From a virus (taxonomy: Duplodnaviria > Heunggongvirae > Uroviricota > Caudoviricetes), in IMG/VR virus record IMGVR_UViG_3300035659_001474, positions 1-21,109 of that record: a stretch of 21,109 bases of DNA; one strand, 5' to 3'. Under the pieces are notes generated by a model. It was not told the origin of the DNA and searched no databases. It was given only the letters and a program-made list of their open reading frames with translations. The position numbers and the translations under genes were made by a program. Within the stretch, counting starts at the first letter, position 1; each line of letters begins with the position of its first letter. This document shows, in pieces, positions 950-18,577 of the stretch.

Positions 950-1639
950 TTAATCTTCTCTAACATTCACATGTTTTTCTACATAATCCCTGTTTTTAGA
1001 AAATATTGGTATTTGCAAATCGACTTCATTGTCAACTATACAAAAACCTCGTTTTCTTACTACAGGATACTTGTCGAAATTAATACCCTTTTGAAACAAC
1101 AATTCTTGAATATCACTACATGATTTCTGAAACAACTCTTTGTGCGAATAATTCTCACGACCAGCAAACTGTATTGCATTTCGCGTTGCGTCAATTTGCC
1201 TCCAGACGAAATAATTAGTCACTTCATCTTGAGGTACAGAAAACACTCTACTGTCAAAACACACATTCTTACCATAGAGCCTCGAGAACACACTGCTAGC
1301 TAATGAAGCTGAAATCGATATCATCTTACAGACATCATAATCAAACCACGAATCAGTTGTTATCGTCTTATAGTCAGTCAACAGGAAACTAATCTCATCT
1401 GACTGACAATAGCAAAATTTGCAACCTTGTATGTCTTTAGCTACTACTTTCGCCGTTTCAATCATCTGGTCAACAAATTCCATTGACCATCCCTTACCAA
1501 ATCTCTTACGAGTAATAGTATGAAATGCTCGACCATCTATTCTCAAAATCACCGGTATCCTATGAGGCAATGTCCAGTGAAAACATGACTCGTAGCGCTT
1601 CATACGATCGCCAATAGACAGTCCGTCAGACTTGCTCAT
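950..1639 (-). CDS. thg1: tRNA-His guanylyltransferase / Thg1-like protein (3'-5' polymerase)
   Basis: DRMKRYE, ILRIDGRAFH, YCQSDEISFLL, FDSR, NYFVWRQIDATRN motifs. Confidence 0.95.
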   Translation of the reverse strand: MSKSDGLSIGDRMKRYESCFHWTLPHRIPVILRIDGRAFHTITRKRFGKGWSMEFVDQMIETAKVVAKDIQGCKFCYCQSDEISFLLTDYKTITTDSWFDYDVCKMISISASLASSVFSRLYGKNVCFDSRVFSVPQDEVTNYFVWRQIDATRNAIQFAGRENYSHKELFQKSCSDIQELLFQKGINFDKYPVVRKRGFCIVDNEVDLQIPIFSKNRDYVEKHVNVRED

Positions 1640-2473: not shown

Positions 2474-3076
2474 TCATGACTCTAATACTACATTCCAGTA
2501 GATGTAATCTACCCACGTTTCATGTGGTATTTCACCCGCCAACCTACTTACTAAATGTGCAGGAGCTGCTTTATCAAGTTTTGGCGCAAAAGGTTGTCGA
2601 ATCAAAGCTCTCTTGTAATCATTGATAGATTTGTGACCCTTTTGACCATTACAACGAATACAACTGACGACGATGTTCTCCCAGCAAGTTTTACCACCTC
2701 GACTTCTTGGTATCACGTGGTCAAAAGTAAAACCTGAAAGTGACACTTTTTTACCACAATACATACAACATCCGGCATCACGAATGTAGACATTCTGTCG
2801 ACTAAATGGCAATACCTTAACATATTTCTTAGGTATATATTCAGAATGAATACATCGAATGACCGATGGAATAGGCATCGATATCCAGCTACTAGTTGAC
2901 TTGGCAACTAATTTGTCAGTGATAATAGCATTCGATGATCGTACTATAGTATTTTCGTAGTTAGCCAAAGCAACTGCTTTTTCAGAAGCTACTAATACAA
3001 TAGCACGTCGAGTATTTACCAATGACACTGGTGTTGACCAACTGTTTAATACCAAAGTCTGTAAAGGATTTGACAT
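2474..3076 (-). CDS. HNH endonuclease (McrA/HNH_5-like)
   Basis: TLVLN N-terminus; RDAGCCMYCG, TFDHVIPRSRGGKTCWENIVVSCIRCNGQKG. Confidence 0.93.
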   Translation of the reverse strand: MSNPLQTLVLNSWSTPVSLVNTRRAIVLVASEKAVALANYENTIVRSSNAIITDKLVAKSTSSWISMPIPSVIRCIHSEYIPKKYVKVLPFSRQNVYIRDAGCCMYCGKKVSLSGFTFDHVIPRSRGGKTCWENIVVSCIRCNGQKGHKSINDYKRALIRQPFAPKLDKAAPAHLVSRLAGEIPHETWVDYIYWNVVLES

Positions 3077-3097: not shown

Positions 3098-3169
3098 TAC
3101 TGGAGGGCAGAGTCGGACTGCCGATCAACTGATTATGATTCAGTGGTTTTACCGCTAAACTACTCCAGT
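3098..3169 (-). tRNA. tRNA with CAU anticodon (elongator Met or Ile2)
   Basis: ACTGA-ATCATAA-TCAGT arm; T-loop TCCGACT; acceptor ACTGGAG/CTCCAGT. Confidence 0.85.
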
Positions 3170-3174
3170 GCAAT

Positions 3175-3210
3175 AAAAAAGCCTCGTCGAAGTTAATCGG
3201 CGAGGCTTTT
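3175..3210 (-). terminator. Intrinsic terminator of putative attenuator 1
   Basis: AAAAGCCTCGCCGA-TTAACT-TCGACGAGGCTTTTTT hairpin followed by a U tract. Confidence 0.9.
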
Positions 3211-3236
3211 AACATTCTAGTTTGTTTGAGCCTCGC

Positions 3237-3344
3237 CTATGGTAGTTGTCCCATTCTAATTGTTGCATCATGGGCAAATGCACACACATTGCCTGTATTA
3301 CTACGGGTAATGAGTTGCAACCATTTTGGTAGATACTTTGACAT
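3237..3344 (-). CDS. Putative 35-aa attenuator leader peptide
   Basis: MSKYLPKWLQLITRSNTGNVCAFAHDATIRMGQLP; its TAG overlaps the antiterminator strand GGCGAGGCT (3237-3229); SD weak (AAGG). Confidence 0.6.
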   Translation of the reverse strand: MSKYLPKWLQLITRSNTGNVCAFAHDATIRMGQLP

Positions 3345-3412
3345 TATATTTTGCCTTTTTGTGTCCTTAAACAGTAATCACATTAAATGTCGTAGTGTTT
3401 CCACTAATACTA

Positions 3413-9019: not shown

Positions 9020-9106
9020 TGCTGGAGAAGAGACTTGAACTCTTACGAGATGATTAAATCTCACTGGATTTTGAGTCCAGCGTGTATGCCATTCCACCAC
9101 TCCAGC
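9020..9106 (-). tRNA. tRNA-Leu(CAA)
   Basis: CTGGA-CTCAAAA-TCCAG arm, long variable arm. Confidence 0.95.
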
Positions 9107-9231
9107 TCAATGCCTATAACTTTCTTGATCTTTTGCAACAACGTTATCTGGTCTAAACCCATACGTACTTGGATGATACGTGTATACGCATCCACAATGA
9201 ACACGGCTTTTTGTTCTTGAAGTTGTCATAT

Positions 9232-9387
9232 CTACCGACCAACGATAATCAATATACCCGCGATGATTGAAAGAATAGCCATAAGAATCGGCAAACTCGA
9301 AACTCTCAAATGAAGCAACGGAGTAGCACCGGCGAGAATGAGCAAAATGCCAAGCAATAACATACCAAGACTTCCAGTGATTCTCAT
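9232..9387 (-). CDS. Small 2-TM membrane protein (51 aa)
   Basis: AGGAGG SD; MRITGSLGMLLLGILLILAGATPLL...AILSIIAGILIIVGR. Confidence 0.7.
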   Translation of the reverse strand: MRITGSLGMLLLGILLILAGATPLLHLRVSSLPILMAILSIIAGILIIVGR

Positions 9388-9397
9388 TGTCGACCTC

Positions 9398-9904
9398 CTA
9401 TAGTAATTTCAAATGACCAGTTACTTCATCAATCTTCTCCGAAAAATCAGGCCCAATGGCCAAACAAGTAATAGTCTTCACGCCCTTAAACTCTGTCAAC
9501 CCATTATCCTCAATCAAAGCAACAGGCAACTTCAACCGCTCAGCTTTTACCTTAATCTCTAGTAACTCTTGTTCTGAACTCACTTGTAAACAAATTTTAG
9601 TGAATATACCCTCCATCCACTCTTTCATCTGCTGATTAATACTCAACATCGGCTCACCATTTACATACTCAATCCTATCAAAAAATATCTTCATTGAACT
9701 GTGGCAGCCTTGCGCTACCATTTTTCCCTTACGCATGTTCAAATCAGTTCTCATGACAATTACTTGCTTAATCATAGTTGTAACCTCTTCATAAGTAGTA
9801 AATCGATGACCAAGTTCACATATGCGACGACGTCGAATACGGTCATCAGATTTTCTAGAATCAATAACCTTAGACACCTTATGACATTGTGGACAAAGAA
9901 GCAT
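9398..9904 (-). CDS. pth2: Peptidyl-tRNA hydrolase Pth2 with in-frame N-terminal NrdR-like Zn ribbon
   Basis: KQVIVMRTDLNMRKGKMVAQGCHS, KICLQV, IEDNGLTEF, TCLAIGP, VTGHLKLL; N-terminus CPQC..KVIDSR..IRRRRIC..GHRFTTYE. Confidence 0.93.
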   Translation of the reverse strand: MLLCPQCHKVSKVIDSRKSDDRIRRRRICELGHRFTTYEEVTTMIKQVIVMRTDLNMRKGKMVAQGCHSSMKIFFDRIEYVNGEPMLSINQQMKEWMEGIFTKICLQVSSEQELLEIKVKAERLKLPVALIEDNGLTEFKGVKTITCLAIGPDFSEKIDEVTGHLKLL

Positions 9905-10085
9905 TAGATTCTATCATCATAAGGTTTAAGATACGAATGTCTTCATTCTCAGTAATCCACTTAACAATATCATCTTCAGTACATTGAAGTCCAGGATGAG
10001 AATTATCTATTAACCAATTCAAGTCTTCTTCAGTAAGCGTTCCAAACTGCTTCTCAACACCTTTAACTATTGGATTACTTCTCAT
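9879..10085 (-). CDS. Small hypothetical protein
   Basis: 68-aa ORF. Confidence 0.55.
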   Translation of the reverse strand: MRSNPIVKGVEKQFGTLTEEDLNWLIDNSHPGLQCTEDDIVKWITENEDIRILNLMMIESNASLSTMS

Positions 10086-10105
10086 AAATCAGTCTCTATT
10101 AAAAA

Positions 10106-10418
10106 TGCCCAAGGTCGGACTCGAACCGACACGGCCTTGCGACCAAGAGATTTTACATGCTAACTACGCCTTTCGACGCCGGTTTTCACCGTTTGTAGTC
10201 TGGACTTTGTCTTCACCATCGTGAGAATTTCTCACATTAGGTGGATGCCGTTAAGTCTCTACACCTTCTAATACTTTTCAGTACTAGCTTGGCTCGGCGT
10301 TGGGTCGAGTTTAACCTCAGGCCGTTCACCGAATTTGACATCTTACATCTATACCGTTTCCAGTATAGCGACCCTCATTTGCGAAAGTCTCTAGTGTCTG
10401 CCATTCCACCACTCGGGC
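10106..10418 (-). tRNA. tRNA-Leu(UAA) split by an intron (exons 10418-10386 and 10155-10106)
   Basis: Joining the exons gives AGAGA-CTTAAAA-TCTCT, a long variable arm and TTCGAGT T-loop. Confidence 0.92.
10156..10385 (-). ncRNA. Group I self-splicing intron (IC3-like), 230 nt
   Basis: 5' exon ends in U, intron ends in G; GACU/GGUC P1; AAATTCGGTGAA, GTAGAGACT and GAAGACAAAGTCCA core elements. Confidence 0.9.
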
Positions 10419-10444
10419 AATCTGCACAATCTGAAACTTGTAAG

Positions 10445-10518
10445 TGGACTCGCCAGGATTTGAACCTGGGACCATCTCGTTATGAGCGAGTGCCTCTAAC
10501 CAACTGAGATACGAGTCC
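10445..10518 (-). tRNA. tRNA with CAU anticodon (Ile2-like or elongator Met)
   Basis: CTCG-CTCATAA-CGAG arm, TTCAAAT T-loop, acceptor GGACTCG/CGAGTCC. Confidence 0.9.
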
Positions 10519-10557
10519 ATTACCTCCTACTACTACTTCATATTGATCTAATCAATC

Positions 10558-10806
10558 CTATTCTCGATGATCAAACTGTTTATCTACTTTATCTTGCTCA
10601 GCTTCCATCTGCTCATTCAACGTTGCCATTCGTAACTCAATCTCATTGTCATCTAACTGAATCATATCTGCTAAAAACATCAACTCTCGAAACTTATCAA
10701 GATATTTATTACAAACAACAAGCTTTGCAGTAGTATATGCCAATCGTCGTTCTACTTGTTCTTGTGACGTCCAATCCATAAACTCTATGAATCTCTCTCT
10801 ATACAA
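10558..10806 (-). CDS. Hypothetical coiled-coil protein
   Basis: 82-aa ORF; start uncertain. Confidence 0.55.
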   Translation of the reverse strand: MYRERFIEFMDWTSQEQVERRLAYTTAKLVVCNKYLDKFRELMFLADMIQLDDNEIELRMATLNEQMEAEQDKVDKQFDHRE

Positions 10807-11387
10807 AACTTCCCGTCATCATACAAATACATCAAACTTTGAGTACTATTGTCACTCTCTATCTCCGGCTCTGCCTCAAACGCTGCCTGATCACCCACCA
10901 GACCATTAAACTCCCACACTGAAAGAAATCCAACATTAAATACATGCTCCCATTTCTTATTTTGTGCTACAACTGCTTTCACACTCAATGTATCTAAATC
11001 AACAGACTTAACAACTAACACTATATCATGCTGAACAATCTTTTGTCCAGGCACTACATACTTTCTTAACAAACTCTTAATCTTAGCTCTATCTTGAGCC
11101 TGTCGTGCCCTAGCTATTTTCTTTTGTTCCATCATCTCAATAACTGATTCAACTTTGAAATTCGGATTCCACTTGACCTTGTCTACATCTGTTGATATTA
11201 TTGCACCACAACTCTCAAGACTTGATAATGTTGATCGCAATAGTTTCTGTATCTCATTATCTGATTCTTCATTTAGCAAGTATCTATATTGCTTAAATGA
11301 ACCCTCAGTAAAGAATCCAAATACTCGACCAATCTTATATAGAGCTGCTTCTATTGAATCATCAGTCTTCAAAAACTCATTCAACAT
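10785..11387 (-). CDS. Hypothetical protein
   Basis: 200-aa ORF with GAGG SD. Confidence 0.75.
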   Translation of the reverse strand: MLNEFLKTDDSIEAALYKIGRVFGFFTEGSFKQYRYLLNEESDNEIQKLLRSTLSSLESCGAIISTDVDKVKWNPNFKVESVIEMMEQKKIARARQAQDRAKIKSLLRKYVVPGQKIVQHDIVLVVKSVDLDTLSVKAVVAQNKKWEHVFNVGFLSVWEFNGLVGDQAAFEAEPEIESDNSTQSLMYLYDDGKFCIERDS

Positions 11388-11676
11388 TTTTCACCTCTGG
11401 TAATCCAAAATCATGTCTTAAATGACTACAAAGCTCTCCTTCGTTAGTCTCCAAATTCAACCACTGCCCGCATACAGCACAGCCTATAGCATTTGGCTTC
11501 AAGTCATGTTTCTCTATTTGCGAGAAAGCTTCTAAGAGTTGTTTTTCAGTCGGTGTTCGAATCTGCTTATTAATAAGACATACTGATGAATCACGTTCTA
11601 CATTGCATCCTTCAGGTTGCTCAAACCACGTACAATCTGGACACTTTCCATGACCTGTCATTTGTTCGTGAGACAT
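11377..11676 (-). CDS. Cys-rich hypothetical protein
   Basis: 99 aa, CPDC and CAVC motifs, GAGG SD. Confidence 0.7.
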   Translation of the reverse strand: MSHEQMTGHGKCPDCTWFEQPEGCNVERDSSVCLINKQIRTPTEKQLLEAFSQIEKHDLKPNAIGCAVCGQWLNLETNEGELCSHLRHDFGLPEVKNVE

Positions 11677-11855
11677 TTATTGTCCTCTTCTTGCACAATT
11701 TGCGCACGGGCATCATAATAGCGTAATTCAAGACTTGAACTTCTTGCTCGACATTCTTTACATTCAACAGTGCGTGAGACATCATTACATTCAGATGTCT
11801 TAACATTATTGCCACACAATAATGTTTTTGTATCATCTACAAGATGAGTTTTCAT
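11658..11855 (-). CDS. Small Cys-containing hypothetical protein
   Basis: 65 aa, LCG...VECKEC. Confidence 0.6.
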   Translation of the reverse strand: MKTHLVDDTKTLLCGNNVKTSECNDVSRTVECKECRARSSSLELRYYDARAQIVQEEDNKCLTNK

Positions 11856-12001
11856 CTAATTTTCTCAATACGATAGTAAACCCCAGCTTCTTCTATGAGC
11901 TCACCAACGCTTGTAACAAAGTCAAGTCCGCATTTCTGTAATGTTGCTACTAATATTTCGTCTTCTCTTTTTCCTGTGGCTGATGCATAAATTTTCCACA
12001 T
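11852..12001 (-). CDS. Small hypothetical protein (49 aa)
   Basis: GAGG SD; MWKIYASATGKRED...; ATGA overlap with the next gene. Confidence 0.6.
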   Translation of the reverse strand: MWKIYASATGKREDEILVATLQKCGLDFVTSVGELIEEAGVYYRIEKIR

Positions 12002-12013
12002 ATTGTTCCTCAG

Positions 12014-12190
12014 TCAATTTGTATCTTCTTCAACACACTTAGGCAATCGAACTAACTTAGGATAGAATGTCCTATGATGAAGAACATCATTATACTTCAC
12101 GCAAGTGTGCATATTCTTATTGGTAGGAAACGTTTCACGACCATTTTCGGGCGGTGAAATAAAGTCGCAATCTTCTTTACAAAAATGCAT
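12014..12190 (-). CDS. Small Cys-containing hypothetical protein (58 aa)
   Basis: Translated by hand: MHFCKEDCDFISPPE...RLPKCVEEDTN. Confidence 0.5.
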   Translation of the reverse strand: MHFCKEDCDFISPPENGRETFPTNKNMHTCVKYNDVLHHRTFYPKLVRLPKCVEEDTN

Positions 12191-12211
12191 GATTTGTCCA
12201 TTGAACTAAAG

Positions 12212-12302
12212 TGGCGGAGAGTGTAGGATTCGAACCCACGGAGCTATTAATTAACTCATCAAGGTTCAAGCTTGACGCCTTAAACCACTCGGCCAACTCT
12301 CC
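12212..12302 (-). tRNA. tRNA-Ser(UGA)
   Basis: TCAAG-CTTGAAC-CTTGA arm, long variable arm, G73, encoded CCA. Confidence 0.95.
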
Positions 12303-12410
12303 AACGTTCTCGCTTATCATTGCTTAAGACATGATATACTATGAAAGAACCATCTACTCATTTACGACAACTGTTAATTATGTCGTTGATTATGTCGTTG
12401 TTCTTTGTAA

Positions 12411-12497
12411 TAGGAGTAGCAGGAATTGAACCTGCGGTAACCGGAAAGCCGCCCCCGACTTATAAGATCGGTGCTCTAACCTCTGAGCTATACTCCT
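12411..12497 (-). tRNA. tRNA-Ile(UAU) with long variable arm
   Basis: CCGAT-CTTATAA-GTCGG arm followed by a 19-nt extra region. Confidence 0.85.
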
Positions 12498-12526
12498 GTA
12501 TTTTAATCAATATGTAACTTGAAGAA

Positions 12527-12788
12527 TACTCTCGCTCGGACTTGAACCGAGATAGCGTTAGCAAAGTTCCTATTAAGAAACGCGATTCCTGCCGCACATA
12601 AACCCTCTGGGACTGTTACCAGATTCCCAGCAGCGTGTCAGTTCTGCCGCAACCTTGGAACTTCCTTAACTTCGAGCCTAATCTTACGACTAGTAAAGTC
12701 TCATAAAGACTTACTCTAATTAAGTCTAACACTCCTTTTACAGTACCGGTTCGTTTTTACCGGTGCTTTACCGTTAAGCTACGAGAGC
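12527..12788 (-). ncRNA. 262-nt tRNA-like RNA with a large structured insertion
   Basis: Acceptor GCTCTCG/CGAGAGT, canonical D-arm and T-arm; non-canonical 8-nt loop in place of the anticodon loop; about 180 nt extra between this arm and the T-arm. Confidence 0.75.
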
Positions 12789-13640
12789 AATACTAGCGGC
12801 ACTACGAGTCGAACGCCTTAATTTCTTTGTCATTATTTTCTTCTTTGGAATACCTAAATAAGCTAAAAACTTAGTAAATTCAAATTCAACAAATTCAGGA
12901 TCATAACTTCCTAAATCTGCAATAACATATTCTTGATAACCGCACTTTCTAATTTGATCAATTTTAATCTTGTCTCTAGTTTGAACTTGTAAAACAGAAT
13001 GTCTTTTATTACACTATTTATAATGCCACATTCCATTCCATAAAATTGCAATTTTTTGATTTTTAAGAATGATGTCTGCATCCCAACCATTAAACATATT
13101 TACATTATGTAAAACGTCGACAAATTTACTATTGCATAAATTAAAAAACATAATTTCATTCTTACTTCGCTTAACATTAACTGTCGATGACTTTAACCCT
13201 CCAAAATGACCAATGTATGTCGATAAACATTTTCTAGAACAAAACCGTTTTCTATCTTTTCTTAATGCGTCATTAAATCGTAAAAATGATTTATTGCAAA
13301 CATAACAGTGTACTTCTGTTTGAGCACGTTTACATTCATCACATTTAATTTTATTTGCTGCTAATCCAGCCAATGTTAATTTATTGCACGAACAGCAATG
13401 AATAAGTTTTTTCAACTTCTTATTGACTCTAGAATGAGAACACTTTTTACTACAATAAGACACTGTTTGATTTTCATGTCCAACTTTACATGTAACATGA
13501 AATATACTGCCACACTTTTTACATATTTTACTTACAATTACACGTTCTTTTCGTGGCCGCTGTGTATGAGCTGATGAATAATGCGCAGCTAAAGAATGTC
13601 TAGTTTCAAATTCACTATCGCACTTTTTACATTTATACAT
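12774..13640 (-). pseudogene. Putative PD-(D/E)XK homing endonuclease with Zn-finger N-terminus, interrupted by an in-frame TAG at 13014-13016
   Basis: C2H2-like and CxxC..FCS..C motifs; SKNE..GWDADI..IAILWNG.WHY; the frame stays open for 79 more codons (KRHSVLQVQTRDKIKI..GY..YVI.D.G). Confidence 0.75.
12792..12822 (-). pseudogene. Possible tRNA 3'-end remnant (T-loop plus acceptor-like strand)
   Basis: GCG-TTCGACT-CGT followed by AGTGCCGCTA. Confidence 0.35.
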
Positions 13641-13699
13641 GTTTCTATACTATGCAAATTGCGTTTCGCAATTTACACTAAGTTATTCTAGAACATAAA

Positions 13700-13772
13700 T
13701 AGCGGGCGCAGGAGTCTAACCTGCATTCGTCTGGTTATGAGCCAGATCGAGACACACGCCTCGCCACCCGCA
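13700..13772 (-). tRNA. tRNA-Met(CAU), initiator-like
   Basis: U1/U72 mismatch, GCGGGT/GCCCGC stem, TCTGG-CTCATAA-CCAGA; D-loop lacks GG, T-loop TTAGACT. Confidence 0.8.
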
Positions 13773-13790
13773 AACTTGAATTTTACTTAA

Positions 13791-13853
13791 TAGCCGGTGA
13801 GAGACTTGAACTCCCAATGTCCTACATTGAGACTTTCCAGACCACCGGGCCTA
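13791..13853 (-). pseudogene. Degenerate tRNA remnant
   Basis: GGGAG-TTCAAGT-CTCTC T-arm, CAATGT/ACATTG hairpin, CCGGTG/CACCGG stem; no D-arm or anticodon arm. Confidence 0.55.
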
Positions 13854-13855
13854 GC

Positions 13856-14770
13856 CTACCGCAATAAAACTGTTTTCAATTTTGCAATGCATTCATCTAA
13901 ACTATTCTTAATGTCACTAGCAGTAAACCTAATAATTATCCAACCATTATTTCTTGACCATTCATCTCTCTTTTTATCTTTATTCTTAACAGAATCTAAA
14001 GTATGAGTCTTACCATCAATTTCTACATCAATTTTACTATTTACAAATGCGAAATCATATTCATAAATTCCAATTTTATACCTTTGCTGCCATCCACAAA
14101 TGTCATGCTCAATTAATGCTTTTTTAAACAATTCTTCAACATATGAAAGTTTAGAGCTATGATATAATCTATATGGTAGCTTATCAGGATTATCACTAAA
14201 GAACTTTTGCATAGATCTAGAAAGCTTTTGTTTTGACTCACTAGAGTGCGACCAATGTTGTTTATGCACTTTGCAATCTTTTAATGCAATTTTAGCAATT
14301 ACCTTACCATACTTTCTTCTAAGTTCGCGTTTTGTCATGCCTGTGTCATAAAGTTCTCTAATTTGATTCAACAGAGCTTGCTGATGATTATTGATTATTG
14401 TATGACAAGACTTTTGATGTCTAATTAAATTGCCTTTGTTAAAACTTCTATTACATTCACATTTGATTAAGCCACCAAAATAATGGCTTTTGTCAATTAT
14501 TTTTCTTCTAGTACTTATTTTTCTTCTAGTACTTTTATGAGAAAGATATTGACTTTCACTTGAAGATCTTGCTTGCATATTTCTAAGAGCATAATTAATC
14601 ACTTCTCTAGTATAACCTAATCGCTTTATTTCACGTTTAGAGAAGCCATCATTGTACAGATCTATGATTTTGTTAAAATCGTCGTCTGTTACTTTACAAC
14701 GAAAATTGTGTTGACTACAAGTTGATTTGTTGCTAAATGCTCGATTACATTTATCACAAATGTAATTCAT
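13856..14770 (-). CDS. DUF559/Vsr-like putative homing endonuclease with duplicated Zn-finger/HTH modules
   Basis: YEYDFAF..KIDVEIDGKTH...DKKRDEW..NGWIIIRF. Confidence 0.85.
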   Translation of the reverse strand: MNYICDKCNRAFSNKSTCSQHNFRCKVTDDDFNKIIDLYNDGFSKREIKRLGYTREVINYALRNMQARSSSESQYLSHKSTRRKISTRRKIIDKSHYFGGLIKCECNRSFNKGNLIRHQKSCHTIINNHQQALLNQIRELYDTGMTKRELRRKYGKVIAKIALKDCKVHKQHWSHSSESKQKLSRSMQKFFSDNPDKLPYRLYHSSKLSYVEELFKKALIEHDICGWQQRYKIGIYEYDFAFVNSKIDVEIDGKTHTLDSVKNKDKKRDEWSRNNGWIIIRFTASDIKNSLDECIAKLKTVLLR

Positions 14771-14800
14771 TTTTATCCTTGATTATTACTACTCGACCCG

Positions 14801-15103
14801 CTATTTTGATTTCAACTTCTGAAAAAAATTCTTACCCCAATCAGACTCAATCAACAATTCATGAGGAAACAACCTGCTATGAGAATATACAAAATCCCCA
14901 TAATATCCCTTACCATCTTTACCCATGCACCAAACATCAGAAACTTCTCTCAAAACAGGTAATAATACTTCACTCTCGACATCTTTCTTCATCACAAGTT
15001 TAACTCTATGACGAAGCTTACGATTTGCAATCTGCTTATCTTTCTTCTCACTCCTACAACCACTGTGTCCTGCGACTAGATGCTTACGATAAGAACGCGA
15101 CAT
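14801..15103 (-). CDS. Basic 'MSRSYR'-type hypothetical protein, copy 2
   Basis: AAGGAG SD; MSRSYRK..SEKKDKQIANRKLR..REVSDVWCMGKDGK. Confidence 0.8.
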   Translation of the reverse strand: MSRSYRKHLVAGHSGCRSEKKDKQIANRKLRHRVKLVMKKDVESEVLLPVLREVSDVWCMGKDGKGYYGDFVYSHSRLFPHELLIESDWGKNFFQKLKSK

Positions 15104-15125
15104 GTGCAACTCCTTGTTAAGGTAA

Positions 15126-15134
15126 TTACATCAT
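15126..15134 (-). promoter_or_regulatory. Two-codon minigene ATG-ATG-TAA
   Basis: Preceded by AAAGGAGG at 5-nt spacing; ends 22 nt upstream of the MSRSYR start. Confidence 0.7.
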
Positions 15135-15161
15135 GCGTTCCTCCTTTGTTAAATTTGAAAA

Positions 15162-15233
15162 TAGGCGCGGGCGGAGTCGGACCGCCAACCTGCTGGATGT
15201 AAGCCAGCTCATCTGCCATTGATATACACGCCC
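15162..15233 (-). tRNA. tRNA-Val(UAC)
   Basis: GCTGG-CTTACAT-CCAGC arm; T-loop TCCGACT. Confidence 0.9.
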
Positions 15234-15398
15234 TTAAATTTTCACGCCAATCGGTTCTTTATTGTCGATGAGCTTTTGTAATTTGACCGTACTATCTACA
15301 GGAAGACTCAATTTTGCCAGTAATTCTTTAGCTACTTCTCTAGCAGCTAAATCATCAATCTGTTCCATCGGAATCTTAATCATCATCTGGTACTTCAT
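15234..15398 (-). CDS. Small hypothetical protein (54 aa)
   Basis: AAGGAG SD before MKYQMMIKIP. Confidence 0.6.
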   Translation of the reverse strand: MKYQMMIKIPMEQIDDLAAREVAKELLAKLSLPVDSTVKLQKLIDNKEPIGVKI

Positions 15399-16605
15399 TT
15401 GAATCTTCTCCTTTAGCACGCTTAAAACAATTCTTTTCATAAAACTCTAACATATTTTTTCGCATCCACCTATTAATTTTTTGTGGCCGCTTATTAAGTA
15501 TAATTGCAACTTGTTTTACCCAACCAAACTTTGAAAAATTAATGTTTGATTGTAGTATTTTATTAACTTGATTTTGTCTTAGTAACTGTTTACTACTTTC
15601 TATTTCTTGTGACTTACATTGCTTTCTATTAGCTATCTCGTCTAATGCATGTAAACATCGTAATTGGTTATTTGTAAATTCAGACATCAACACATTTCGT
15701 GTTTCTTTGTGTTTTAAGATTTCTGCGATTTGATCAAATTTAGTCTTTGAATCTTTAAATATAGCTTGCCAAGATATTCTAAAAACATCAATATTTTTTG
15801 ACTTTATTAATTGATCTTTTTTATCATCAATAATTTTTCGTCTAATGTATCGATAATGTTGTTTACCGTCAATTTCAATTACTAGCGCTAATTCTGGAAA
15901 ATAAAAATCTGCTCTATAAATTGAAAACGGAAATTCAGTGAAAAACTGTTTATTATGTTCATAACCTTGATTTATTAAGAATTCAAAAAACACTTTTTCA
16001 GCATAAGACTGTCTGTGCCATGTATTTGCTCGTTCTTCTTTATGCAGTTTTTTACATTTTTCAGAAAATCTTTGTTTTGATTCTTCAGACCACTTAAAGG
16101 AGTATTTAGTATGTGCTAATTTACTTGCCTCTGCAGCTGATCGTCTATGTTGTCTCAAAGCATGTTTTATAAGTCCAGTACTAAATCCTTGTAAGACTAT
16201 TTCACTTGGCGACTGTCCAGATTTATATAAACTTCGAACTTTTTCAATGTCAATATCAGTATATTTAAGACAAGTATGTCGTTCGAAATTTCCTTTGTTA
16301 AATGACTTATTGCACTTACTGCAAACTATACGGTTATTACTAAAATTGTTTACTTTCTTTCGTTGTGCTTTAGAATGTGATATTTTTAATGTCTCACTAG
16401 CAGTTCTTTTTAAGTCTTTAACACATCTATTAACTTGATTTCTTGTATATCCCATATTAACTATGTCAACTACAAATTGCCCAGATCTATACAAGTCTCT
16501 AATTTTTTGTCGATCAGGTTTAGAAATGGTGCAATTCTTCTTATGTGATGCGAAACCTCCAAAATTTGAAAAAATCTTATCACAATTTTCGCATTGCAAA
16601 TTCAT
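15376..16605 (-). CDS. DUF559/Vsr-like putative homing endonuclease (409 aa)
   Basis: AAGGAG SD before MNLQCENC (the track start is inside tRNA-Ser); YRADFYFPELALVIEIDGKQH...DDKKD..FRISW; duplicated N-terminal modules; C-terminal HTH-like tail. Confidence 0.85.
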   Translation of the reverse strand: MNLQCENCDKIFSNFGGFASHKKNCTISKPDRQKIRDLYRSGQFVVDIVNMGYTRNQVNRCVKDLKRTASETLKISHSKAQRKKVNNFSNNRIVCSKCNKSFNKGNFERHTCLKYTDIDIEKVRSLYKSGQSPSEIVLQGFSTGLIKHALRQHRRSAAEASKLAHTKYSFKWSEESKQRFSEKCKKLHKEERANTWHRQSYAEKVFFEFLINQGYEHNKQFFTEFPFSIYRADFYFPELALVIEIDGKQHYRYIRRKIIDDKKDQLIKSKNIDVFRISWQAIFKDSKTKFDQIAEILKHKETRNVLMSEFTNNQLRCLHALDEIANRKQCKSQEIESSKQLLRQNQVNKILQSNINFSKFGWVKQVAIILNKRPQKINRWMRKNMLEFYEKNCFKRAKGEDSNEVPDDD

Positions 16606-16630
16606 GATATCTCCTTTTAGAGTATCATGA

Positions 16631-16658
16631 ATTATAAACAAACGTTCAATTCCGACAA
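16631..16658 (-). promoter_or_regulatory. Possible sigma70 promoter for the endonuclease gene
   Basis: TTGTCG-16 nt-TATAAT. Confidence 0.45.
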
Positions 16659-16678
16659 TTAGAGAATCATGGCATTTT

Positions 16679-16765
16679 TGGCGGTGAGTGAGAGACTTGA
16701 ACTCCCATATCCCTTTCGGGACGCTCGAATTCGAATCGAGTGGACTGCCATTATCCGAACTCACC
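16679..16765 (-). tRNA. tRNA-Ser(CGA)
   Basis: CTCGA-TTCGAAT-TCGAG arm, long variable arm, G73, encoded CCA. Confidence 0.92.
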
Positions 16766-16786
16766 GTAATGTTACTCTCAAATAAA

Positions 16787-16871
16787 TGGATCGGGAAGGA
16801 TTTGAACCTTCGTAGTCCGTTAGGACGACAGATTTACAGTCTGTTACGATTGACCACTCTGACACCGATCC
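16787..16871 (-). tRNA. tRNA-Tyr(GUA)
   Basis: ACAGA-CTGTAAA-TCTGT arm, long variable arm. Confidence 0.95.
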
Positions 16872-17133
16872 AAATTTCATTTCTTCTTGCTTTCCATTCA
16901 GGTATGGGTTCATGTACTTCGAGTTCTCCACTCCAACATGATACCCAGGGCCACGGATCCCACCGACTCTTATAGTCGCAAATATTCCAGTTATCAAAGT
17001 ATTTGCGATAGATTTTGCCGTTTGGTACGTCTTTAGCTCTTCTGATCACGCGATTAGCTTCTCTTTTTGCAAACTTTTTGTAGCTAGAGCCATAGCCACA
17101 AACGAAGACTGGTTCGCGATAACTTCGAGACAT
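16834..17133 (-). CDS. Basic 'MSRSYR'-type hypothetical protein, copy 1
   Basis: AAGGAG SD; MSRSYRE..KKFAKREANRVIRR..FDNWNICDY; 3' end overlaps tRNA-Tyr. Confidence 0.8.
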   Translation of the reverse strand: MSRSYREPVFVCGYGSSYKKFAKREANRVIRRAKDVPNGKIYRKYFDNWNICDYKSRWDPWPWVSCWSGELEVHEPIPEWKARRNEIWIGVRVVNRNRL

Positions 17134-17156
17134 GTTGTTCACTCCTTGTTAGTATT

Positions 17157-17165
17157 TTACAACAT
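17157..17165 (-). promoter_or_regulatory. Two-codon minigene ATG-TTG-TAA
   Basis: Preceded by AAAGGAGG at 5-nt spacing; ends 23 nt upstream of the MSRSYR start. Confidence 0.7.
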
Positions 17166-17196
17166 ATTGACCTCCTTTAGTTGAAGTTGAAAAAAG

Positions 17197-17271
17197 TAGC
17201 CCATAGCAGAGTCGAACTGCTGTCAACGCCTTGAAAAGACGTGGTCCTAAAAACCGCTGGACGAATGGGCC
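17197..17271 (-). tRNA. tRNA-Glu(UUC)
   Basis: ACGTC-TTTTCAA-GGCGT arm, TTCGACT T-loop. Confidence 0.93.
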
Positions 17272-17292
17272 GCATTTTGTTTTCAGCACTAA

Positions 17293-17364
17293 AGCGAGCG
17301 ACCGGGATTGAACCGGCGTGAACCTACTTGGAAAGAAGGTGCCTGACCACTAGGCTACACTCGC
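17293..17364 (-). tRNA. tRNA-Gly(UCC)
   Basis: CCTTC-TTTCCAA-GTAGG arm (one U.U mismatch), U73. Confidence 0.9.
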
Positions 17365-17372
17365 AATTATCA

Positions 17373-17438
17373 TGGCAGGCGTGCAAGGACTCGAACCCTG
17401 GTGGGAATCAGCCATTCTAGCCGCTGAATTACACGCCT
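17373..17438 (-). pseudogene. Truncated tRNA (CCC, Gly-like) missing the 3' anticodon strand and variable loop
   Basis: 66 nt; perfect acceptor AGGCGTG/CACGCCT, D-arm, T-arm and CCA, but GCTGA-TTCCCA has no partner strand. Confidence 0.7.
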
Positions 17439-17450
17439 ATAAACTTTATC

Positions 17451-17525
17451 TGGCGGACTCGACGGCTACTGATGCCGTGTTCTCAGCCGTGACAAGGCTG
17501 TATGTTACCATTACACCACGAGTCC
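17451..17525 (-). tRNA. tRNA-Asp(GUC) with non-canonical T-loop
   Basis: CAGCC-TTGTCAC-GGCTG arm, G73, CCA; T-arm ACGGC-ATCAGTA-GCCGT. Confidence 0.88.
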
Positions 17526-17538
17526 ATACTAAAAAATT

Positions 17539-17630
17539 CTGACAGTTGGTCATTCCTACGACCAGTCCTGCCGGCACACTGTCGAGTGCCTTGGGAGCTG
17601 GTACCGTTTCCAGTTCTAAGTTTGACCTTG
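17539..17630 (-). ncRNA. Candidate pseudoknotted small RNA between tRNA-Leu and tRNA-Asp
   Basis: GGCAC/GTGCC and TGGTC/GACCA stems, loop GACAGT complementary to 3' ACTGTC, GAAA-tetraloop hairpin. Confidence 0.45.
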
Positions 17631-17635
17631 TAATA

Positions 17636-17721
17636 TGCGAGAAGCGAGAGTTGAACTCGCAAGGAATATTACTTCCATTGGGGTCTAAGCCCAACGCGTC
17701 TGCCAATTCCGCCATCCTCGC
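17636..17721 (-). tRNA. tRNA-Leu(UAG)
   Basis: TTGGG-CTTAGAC-CCCAA arm, long variable arm. Confidence 0.95.
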
Positions 17722-17794
17722 GCAATTACATTCTCAAATGTGCTTCATCATCAATATGTCAAAGAGCTTTGAATCAGTGTCTCTAGAATGTAAG

Positions 17795-17868
17795 TACCTG
17801 CAGTCGGATTTGAACCGACGACTCCGATATTAAAAGTATCGTACTCTGACCATCTGAGTTATGCAGGC
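17795..17868 (-). tRNA. tRNA-Lys(UUU)
   Basis: CGATA-CTTTTAA-TATCG arm. Confidence 0.95.
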
Positions 17869-17926
17869 ATTTACTTAATCTCAAAGATCGCTAATCGTCG
17901 TCAATTGAATCATACAACTATCTAAG

Positions 17927-18003
17927 GGTGCGTGACGGGACTTGAACCCGCAAAATCTCTGGACTCACAATCCAGCGCTTTAGCCAATTAAGCTACACGC
18001 ACC
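17927..18003 (-). tRNA. tRNA-His(GUG) with genomically encoded G-1
   Basis: CTGGA-TTGTGAG-TCCAG arm; G-GTGCGTG/CACGCAC-C gives G-1:C73. Confidence 0.95.
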
Positions 18004-18013
18004 ATATATTTAG

Positions 18014-18103
18014 TGGCCCCGGCAGGATTTGAACCTGCGATGTGAGCTGTAAGCCCAGACAGATTAAGAATCTGTTACCCTCGATCCGCTAGGTGACGGA
18101 GCC
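18014..18103 (-). tRNA. tRNA-Lys(CUU) with long variable arm
   Basis: ACAGA-TTCTTAA-TCTGT arm plus a 20-nt arm containing TGGGC-TTACA-GCTCA. Confidence 0.85.
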
Positions 18104-18121: not shown

Positions 18122-18271
18122 TCATTGTCCATTTGGATCCGCTCCTTTTAAGTTGTCAATAGGCCAGACCAATTTTGTGATTGGTTTTGGTTTCCGGCCC
18201 CATTTTTGTTCTTTTGACATTTCGACAACATCTTTTGGAAGCAAGCATTTTGAGACTTCAAATTTTTCCAT
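18122..18271 (-). CDS. Small hypothetical protein (49 aa), first gene after attenuator 2
   Basis: AAGGAGG SD; MEKFEVSKCLLPKDVVEMSKEQKWGRKPKP... Confidence 0.65.
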   Translation of the reverse strand: MEKFEVSKCLLPKDVVEMSKEQKWGRKPKPITKLVWPIDNLKGADPNGQ

Positions 18272-18291: not shown

Positions 18292-18327
18292 AAAAACCCC
18301 GTCGATCTGTTTGACCGGCGGGGTTTT
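18292..18327 (-). terminator. Intrinsic terminator of putative attenuator 2
   Basis: AAAACCCCGCCGGTC-AAACA-GATCGACGGGGTTTTT. Confidence 0.9.
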
Positions 18328-18356
18328 GTGTTTAGCCTAAGTGTTTTAGGATTAAC

Positions 18357-18491
18357 TCAAACCCCGCCTGTCCATATCTTATCATAGCCTTCGTATCCAA
18401 GCGACAGCCATGATAATTTGGACAACTCCAATACCACGTGTCGTTTGACACGTTCTATTGATAGCGTGGTATGAAGTTGTAGGGTTTGCAT
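18357..18491 (-). CDS. Putative 44-aa attenuator leader peptide
   Basis: GGAG SD; MQTLQLHTTLSIERVKRHVVLELSKLSWLSLGYEGYDKIWTGGV; last codons and TGA overlap the antiterminator strand GGCGGGGTTT (18368-18359). Confidence 0.7.
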   Translation of the reverse strand: MQTLQLHTTLSIERVKRHVVLELSKLSWLSLGYEGYDKIWTGGV

Positions 18492-18577
18492 TATTGACTC
18501 CGGATTAGCTTCTAGTTTTCTTGTTTATTCTTAAATATAAAACAATAATCACTTTAATAAGCGTAGATAAACCATGT

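Follow-up and report, generated by a model that had tools for sequence, protein, structure and literature searches.

A putative leader-peptide attenuator ahead of the main tRNA array of a tailed phage

Why should a phage place a strong transcription terminator directly in front of its own tRNA genes? The question is raised by a short element on the minus strand of the window considered here (the whole stretch of 21,109 nucleotides that was analysed), which makes up the first 21 kb of an IMG/VR phage record (128 kb) with a GC content of 36% and an estimated completeness of 62%. Nearly all genes of this phage are carried by the minus strand, and so are its 20 or more tRNA genes. At 18.3 kb, ahead of the main tRNA array, a small open reading frame (ORF) runs into a region that can fold in two mutually exclusive ways, and one of these folds is an intrinsic terminator. 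Is this a simple end of transcription? Or, is it a switch, and then what would throw it?

A preliminary description of the locus took the element to be a ribosome-dependent attenuator of the same design as another one at ~3.2 kb, with the leader stop codon placed on the antiterminator strand. The comparative evidence collected below supports this reading. It is likely, in our judgement, that the element is a multivalent, ribosome-mediated (leader-peptide) transcription attenuator that gates the main tRNA array, and transcription of the tRNA genes probably continues only when ribosomes decode the leader slowly. The element is referred to as copy B; copy A is the attenuator at ~3.2 kb, and copy C is a third one at ~36.2 kb, outside the window.

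Anatomy and predicted folding of copy B

The features of the element and of its surroundings are collected in Table 1. The leader is preceded by a GGAG Shine-Dalgarno sequence and its 3' end reads ACA GGC GGG GTT TGA, both as first described. The perfect pairing claimed for the switch is also there: segment 1, GGCGGGGTTT, is the exact reverse complement of segment 2, AAACCCCGCC, which forms the 5' side of the terminator stem. The final base of segment 1 is shared with the stop codon TGA (18359-18357). As for the terminator, its hairpin spans 18326-18294, and five T follow directly. Could the upstream complement be fortuitous? Complements of this length within 100 nt upstream turned up in fewer than 1 shuffle in 20,000 (p = 5e-5).

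Table 1. Features of copy B, of the genes behind it and of its two sister elements; positions beyond 21,109 are those of the 128-kb record.
Feature	Position	Strand	Basis
35-nt motif, TGG-N5-CTACG-N10-TGATTA-N-TGTT	18540..18574	-	Sequence
Shine-Dalgarno GGAG, 6 nt before the leader ATG	18498..18501	-	Read from sequence
Leader ORF, 44 codons plus TGA stop	18357..18491	-	Sequence
Segment 0, CAAACCCT, codons 2-4, protector strand for segment 1	18481..18488	-	Fold
Hairpin H1, within the leader ORF	18422..18480	-	Minimum-free-energy fold
Hairpin H2, within the leader ORF, ends beside segment 1	18369..18424	-	Minimum-free-energy fold
Segment 1, GGCGGGGTTT, 5' strand of the antiterminator	18359..18368	-	Sequence
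Segment 2, AAACCCCGCC, pairs with segment 1 (antiterminator) or segment 3 (terminator)	18317..18326	-	Sequence
Intrinsic terminator, hairpin with one C.A mismatch, then U5	18292..18326	-	Sequence
49-aa Lys-rich ORF, first gene after the terminator; ribosome-binding site AAGGAGG at 18284-18278	18122..18271	-	
Main tRNA array, ~17 tRNA genes and a truncated Trp-like gene	9020..18103	-	ARAGORN, Rfam
Sister attenuator A, including upstream motif	3175..3403	-	Same scan
Sister attenuator C, outside the window and absent from the preliminary description	36456-36187	-	

The terminators of copies A and B had been singled out for a shared CGCCG...CGACG signature with a C.A mismatch. This observation is correct within the window, where the signature occurs exactly twice, in copy B and at 3202-3185 in copy A, with ~0.05 occurrences expected by chance; in copy B, the mismatched C pairs perfectly in the alternative helix. 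As a hallmark of attenuators, however, the mismatch has to be given up, because two ordinary terminators of the record (37282-37250 and 45435-45402), which have neither an upstream complement nor a tRNA gene after them, carry the same kind; the C.A mismatch is thus not diagnostic. These two terminators are flanked by an A-run and a T-run and show C.A or A.C when read on the minus strand, G.U when read on the plus strand. They may be bidirectional.

The leader was described as unusually varied in its codons, and it is: 33 distinct codons are used in 44, including five of the six Leu codons and all four Val codons. For comparison, 44-codon windows taken from the long ORFs of the phage hold 26.4 ± 2.7 distinct codons (p = 0.009).

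Its RNA is also strongly structured. The 236-nt region of copy B folds at -80.7 kcal/mol, with z = -6.8 against dinucleotide shuffles, and the minimum-free-energy fold contains both of the long hairpins noticed earlier, the second of which ends at 18369 and adjoins the antiterminator strand. These two hairpins, H1 and H2, may act as a pause or coupling element. When the nascent RNA is folded up to the stop codon, segment 0, CAAACCCT (18488-18481), is predicted to pair with GGGGTTTG of segment 1, which closes a three-way junction over H1 and H2. With this additional segment, not part of the first reading, the modelled layout of copy B becomes the four-segment one of the trp leader.

What do the calculated energies say about the choice between the two folds? 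Taken alone, the antiterminator hairpin amounts to -23.6 kcal/mol and the terminator hairpin to -18.9 kcal/mol. Taken together with the rest of the leader, the predicted states are nearly isoenergetic: -78.2 kcal/mol for the terminator combined with the pairing of segments 0 and 1, versus -79.5 kcal/mol for the antiterminator. The position of a ribosome would then tip the balance. Masking its footprint at the stop codon of copy B gives the terminator as the predicted fold, and masking at early leader codons gives the antiterminator. At some mid-leader codons the terminator is predicted instead, and this counts against the attenuator model.

Related to this is the question of which polymerase would meet the switch. 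The phage encodes a sigma-70 family factor (47579-47788 on the minus strand of the 128-kb record), and a search of the available 62% of the genome detected no phage RNA polymerase; host polymerase is therefore the likely enzyme. The leader unit would be transcribed by it, and host polymerase obeys terminators made of a hairpin followed by a run of U.

From this anatomy we infer the start site, the response to ribosome position and the physiological trigger as follows. Host RNA polymerase would start upstream, probably near the 35-nt motif and the TATATT box that follows it (18574-18534), and would transcribe the 44-codon leader. If translation proceeds smoothly to the UGA, the terminating ribosome would cover segment 1 and leave segments 2 and 3 to pair, so that the terminator forms and transcription ends ~20 nt short of the following gene. 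Should a ribosome stall at a slow codon before it reaches the UGA, segment 1 would stay free and pair with segment 2 as this emerges, over 10 perfect base pairs; this antiterminator would block the terminator, and the polymerase would read into the 49-aa ORF and the ~17 tRNA genes. If the leader is not translated at all, segment 1 can be sequestered by segment 0, which would let the terminator form, as in the trp leader. Such a circuit would be one of negative feedback, by which phage tRNAs are supplied on demand.

Recurrence in the genome and conservation in relatives

Does the same arrangement occur elsewhere? The whole 128-kb record was scanned for strong hairpin-T-run sites, and then for upstream complements of their 5' arms. 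A complement lies close by at three sites only, each directly before the head of a tRNA cluster: copies A, B and C. Their switch sequences are unrelated to one another, and each has a small ORF with a ribosome-binding site, so that the earlier statement that A and B share a design and not a leader sequence extends to a third copy. The stop codons of the other copies fall between 2 nt before the start of segment 1 and 6 nt after its end.

Copy A has a 35-codon leader (3344-3237), segment 1 at 3240-3229 and a terminator (3209-3175), and tRNA-Met starts at 3169, within 8 nt of the terminator; the shuffle test gives p = 4e-4 for the complement. Of the 20 amino acids, 19 occur among the 35 residues of its leader (p = 0.0095). 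The leader of copy C (36346-36251) has 31 codons, with many for Thr, Asn, Phe, Ser and Cys; its protector pairing is strong, and its terminator lies at 36222-36187. After this come, with a gap of 30 nt before the first, the genes for tRNA-Phe, tRNA-Ser(GCU), tRNA-Cys, tRNA-Thr(CGU) and a tRNA with a CUA anticodon. Neither A nor C leaves room for a promoter between terminator and tRNA gene, and these tRNAs consequently need read-through. The situation differs in copy B, where 190 nt, including the 49-aa ORF, separate the terminator from the first tRNA; given this protein-coding ORF, an internal promoter is possible there.

The three units also share the 35-nt motif of Table 1. It occurs exactly three times in the 128 kb, at 18574-18540, 3403-3369 and 36456-36422, in each case 25-76 nt before the ATG of a leader, and in copy B a TATATT box (18539-18534) directly follows it. 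The motif is likewise present three times in the relative G001, and a variant of it precedes a fourth attenuator in L028. Apart from G001, a scan of IMG/VR for this motif returned only chance matches, which lie within a conserved coding region of unrelated small phages. The motif is probably a promoter or an operator specific to the leader units. A different idea, that it is an eight-codon mini-ORF, was dropped: there is no ribosome-binding site, and the stop codon is not kept in copy C of G001.

A few observations concern amber codons. Array C is closed by the tRNA with the CUA anticodon, of the amber suppressor type (33583-33657, minus strand of the record), and leaders A and C both end in TAG. 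A ribosome that read through this TAG in copy C would pass over segment 2 and reach a TGA in the loop of the terminator; the frame that it would follow is not conserved in G001. The idea that amber recoding accounts for the TAG stops of leaders A and C was rejected: treating TAG as sense lengthens ORFs no more than treating TGA or TAA so, and 22 of 116 long ORFs end in TAG.

A blastn search for related phage records in INPHARED gave one tRNA-His match and nothing else, a search of IMG/VR with the ADP-ribosyltransferase protein encoded upstream of copy B gave no relatives, and a scan of IMG/VR with the first 23 nt of leader B gave G001 as the sole match. The DNA of the element is present in three sediment DNA runs, one of which may be the source, and no RNA run is listed. 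The comparison was instead built on the Thg1-like protein of array A, through which three IMG/VR genomes were found, and alignment led to 80 metagenome loci.

In G001, whose Thg1 is 86% identical, all three attenuators are kept. Copy B has 43 codons there, owing to an in-frame deletion of 3 nt, and ends at the same stop, as the preliminary description would have it for an attenuator. A third lineage, known as protein only, has a leader of 41 aa that shares the first 16 residues and the C-terminal WTGGV, and these shared ends indicate that the frame and the C-terminal end have been kept through further in-frame indels. Loss of the frame or of the stop position in relatives that keep the RNA structure would have spoken against the attenuator; the relatives have kept the frame and, where their DNA is available, the stop. 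The peptide itself is not conserved, as the eight nonsynonymous versus six synonymous codon differences between copy B and its G001 counterpart indicate.

Segment 1 has one mismatch in G001 and is perfect in contigs L026 and L027, and the terminator is invariant in all three apart from two loop bases. H1 shows two compensatory pair changes with respect to G001 (C-G to U-A and A-U to G-C), and the core 11-bp stem of H2 is identical in G001 and L027. Overall, 17 of 173 paired sites differ from G001, versus 19 of 89 unpaired sites (p = 0.01). Two features of this relative count against the attenuator reading, namely the mismatch in segment 1 and the weak ribosome-binding site of its copy B (GAGAG).

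The genome G002 (Thg1 78% identical) carries three different attenuators at its tRNA heads, and further ones stand at the heads of tRNA clusters in L028, L030 and L033. Across the 80 loci, a segment 1 with an ORF ending on it was found at 7 of the 12 terminators that stand just before a tRNA gene; of the other hairpin-T runs, 23 of 360 have this combination (p = 6.6e-6). None of these elements stands at the tRNA heads of G003, a more distant relative, which counts against the reading. The comparison also bears on the protector segment. In copy B its pairing with segment 1 is just 8 bp, including one G.U, and G001 is mismatched there; the same kind of protector is found in copy C, in copy C of G001, in the G002 copies and in L033, often in a stronger form (it is strong in C and L033). 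Two paralogous leaders of G002 have a conserved N-terminal part, and this part corresponds to the protector strand of the RNA.

What the leaders read, and other explanations

If the switch senses decoding, one can expect the codons of each leader to be those that its own tRNAs serve. The codon content of the leaders was therefore compared with the tRNAs behind them, under strict wobble rules and with the long ORFs of the phage as background. The sister leaders give sharp answers. Leader C, which stands before tRNAs for Phe, Ser(GCU), Cys and Thr, has 13 of 30 codons matched against a background of 8.5% (p = 3.6e-7), and its counterpart in G001, with Asn in addition, 16 of 26 (p = 4e-8). In G002, a 20-codon leader with an FPQQPQQPQP core precedes tRNAs for Pro and Gln (8/19, p = 9e-6), and another, with five His and three Met, precedes tRNAs for His and Met (7/32, p = 1.4e-4). 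The leader of L028 matches its Pro, Gln, Arg(CCU) and Arg(GCG) tRNAs at 12 of 19 codons (p = 8.5e-10), and that of L033 matches an array of Trp, Thr, Ser, Ser, His, Ser, Thr, Ala and Ala at 19 of 29 (p = 3.4e-8). When leaders and arrays were cross-compared within each genome, the match proved specific.

The answer of leader B is less sharp. Against its ~17 tRNAs, 26 of 43 sense codons are matched where the background is 44%, a modest excess (p = 0.023); the test is low in power for copy B because the array serves many amino acids. For the same reason, a leader tuned to this array would sample many codons, 33 kinds in this case, enriched for those that its own tRNAs read. Codons served by arrays A and C are underrepresented in leader B. 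Its codons 10-44 can be read as almost all served, provided that U34 reads four-codon boxes and that the Trp tRNA of G001 is counted. Two observations count against the match: the first eight codons are mostly unmatched, and in G001, leader B has acquired codons for Ala and Pro, which the array there does not serve. A suggested avoidance of Ala, Cys, Phe, Asn and Pro in leader B, on the grounds that their tRNAs lie elsewhere, was discarded, since the G001 leader has Ala and Pro. Leader A shows no codon match to its array (p = 0.17).

These numbers leave space for another input to the same hardware. Might the switch respond to general translation capacity, as set by host shut-off, stress or ribosome-targeting toxins, and not to particular tRNAs? 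A long leader with so many different codons and without a run of any single one would suit this purpose, as would the merely modest match of leader B and the composition of leader A, which has no significant match yet carries 19 of the 20 amino acids. A general sensor would, however, have no use for the sharp codon specificity of the sister leaders in this genome and its clade, with p values from 1e-4 to 1e-10, or for the depletion of leader B in the codons of other arrays; and a leader matched to ~17 tRNAs would have to be diverse in any case. We hold the general sensor to be rather unlikely.

Other explanations do without the ribosome. The folds may be real and yet be set by an RNA-binding protein of phage or host, by uncharged tRNA in the manner of a T-box or by co-transcriptional kinetics, with the ORF being incidental, an idea to which the pronounced structure of the leader RNA, the compensatory changes in H1 and the lack of peptide conservation lend themselves. 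It appears highly improbable when set against the rest: no Rfam family, T-box included, reaches its threshold, and the copies have no common motif in the switch that a protein could read. Moreover, the indels in the leader have left its frame intact, and its stop has not moved where the DNA is known; every copy has its stop on or within 6 nt of segment 1, and the codon matching of the sister leaders is left unexplained without translation. The simplest explanation is that of an ordinary, somewhat leaky terminator that ends the upstream ADP-ribosyltransferase operon or protects the 3' end of it, next to which ORF and complement arose by chance and behind which the tRNAs are made from another promoter or by leakage. 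The genome does hold strong terminators with C.A mismatches and no leaders, and in copy B the 190 nt before the first tRNA include an ORF. Chance, on the other hand, is a poor author of the complement, given the shuffles, and of a design that recurs with different sequences at every tRNA head, ~9-fold enriched versus other terminators; nor does the explanation suit A and C, whose tRNAs start 8-30 nt after the terminator. We give it next to no credence. Attenuation by a translating ribosome is the reading retained in what follows.

Known systems and the genes behind the putative switch

Leader-peptide attenuation is textbook biology for amino-acid operons. The enterobacterial examples include trpL, hisL, leuL, thrL and pheL, together with the multivalent leaders of ilvGMEDA and ilvBN. 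Copy B resembles them in its short translated leader, in its four segments with mutually exclusive protector, antiterminator and terminator pairings, in a stop codon placed so that the terminating ribosome masks the antiterminator strand, and in codons that would report the supply of charged tRNA; like the ilv leaders, it samples several amino acids. Unlike them, it has as its output phage tRNA genes and a 49-aa ORF, not biosynthetic enzymes, and its 44 codons contain two strong internal hairpins and cover ~15 amino acids, with no tandem runs. In sequence, copy B and these leaders are not similar.

Closer in purpose is pheM, the leader attenuator of the pheST operon of E. coli, which encodes Phe-tRNA synthetase. 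Its output is a part of the translation apparatus that serves the sensed codons, which makes for a feedback loop on decoding, as proposed for copy B; the differences are that pheM controls a synthetase and not tRNA genes, senses a single amino acid and is cellular, not viral. T-box riboswitches also choose between terminator and antiterminator according to tRNA status and control translation-related genes, but they bind uncharged tRNA directly and need no ORF, and copy B is not a member of this class: no T-box match was found between 18100 and 18650 even at E values up to 5, nor any at the gathering threshold in the window. At that threshold, Rfam gave only tRNAs and one group I intron for the whole window. 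The Rfam leader families, the rnk leader among them, reached 17-19 bits at best versus cut-offs of 49-55, and His_leader scored 16.8 bits versus a cut-off of 49, on the opposite strand.

As for phages, old work on the tRNA region of T5 reportedly noted small ORFs and terminators among the tRNA genes. In the searchable full-text literature, no description of leader-peptide attenuation of tRNA genes was found, whether in phages or in cells. A last comparison concerns resistance genes, whose attenuators sense translation inhibition; that of vmlR in B. subtilis is an example (PMC9226507). In this class, a short upstream ORF is present and ribosome stalling turns an intrinsic terminator off, as proposed for copy B, and the response to a general slowing of translation offers one possible reading of the many codons of leader B. 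Such attenuators have ribosome-bound antibiotics as trigger and resistance factors as output, whereas the sister leaders of the phages are codon-matched to tRNAs.

Do the copies add up to a system? They could form a regulon for codon-resolved, on-demand tRNA supply, in which each block stands behind a leader written in its own codons, at least three units (four in a near relative) share the motif, and the whole acts as a self-tuning counter to tRNA-directed defence; the chances that this is so seem to us evenly balanced. If the regulon is real, a block would be transcribed only when its codons slow, for example upon decay of host tRNAs or cleavage by an anticodon nuclease, and the 35-nt motif may be read by a phage sigma factor or regulator. 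Large phages would then meter each tRNA block against the actual decoding speed of its codons, which bears on why phages carry tRNA arrays and on the ways in which they withstand a loss of host tRNAs or defences that cleave tRNA. The element, ~280 nt long and self-contained, exists in several natural variants with different codon sets; it could act as a sensor of codon-specific translation speed.

What lies on either side of the switch? Immediately upstream of the leader unit of copy B is the gene for the ADP-ribosyltransferase (PF03496; 18578-19378, minus strand). The 49-aa ORF downstream is kept in two relatives at 78-85% identity with in-frame indels, and a family search with it gave no match. 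The tRNAs of the main array are, in the order recorded, Lys, His, Lys, Leu, Asp, Gly, Glu, Tyr, Ser, Val, Met, Ile, Ser, Met, Leu and Leu, and one further tRNA, which contains an intron, completes the ~17. The first of the array (18013-18103, minus strand) is 91 nt long, with a long variable arm and the Lys anticodon CUU, which is UUU in G001. A tRNA-like gene at 17376-17438 (minus strand) scores 35 bits with Rfam and is missed by ARAGORN; its acceptor stem is shared with the tRNA-Trp(CCA) of G001, and the 3' side of its anticodon arm is short of ~11 nt, so that the gene may encode an unusual tRNA-Trp or be a decayed one.

Endonuclease-like ORFs are interspersed in the main array, as judged from Pfam. 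Those among the tRNA genes of the window lie at 13856-14770, 15376-16764 and 2474-3076 (all on the minus strand) and are of the DUF559/Vsr type with zinc fingers or of the HNH type; they are probably homing endonucleases, and one of them overlaps the end of tRNA-Ser(CGA). Within array A, the Thg1-like protein used above to find relatives is a tRNA-His guanylyltransferase (950-1639, minus strand). Finally, three tRNA genes have introns of ~180-230 nt in the anticodon loop, all on the minus strand: 10105-10419 and 12526-12789 in the window, and 35788-36061 in the record. The third of these genes, which belongs to array C, can on paper be spliced to a Thr(UGU) or to an Asn(GUU) tRNA, according to the register chosen, and Rfam places a group I intron at 10177-10395.
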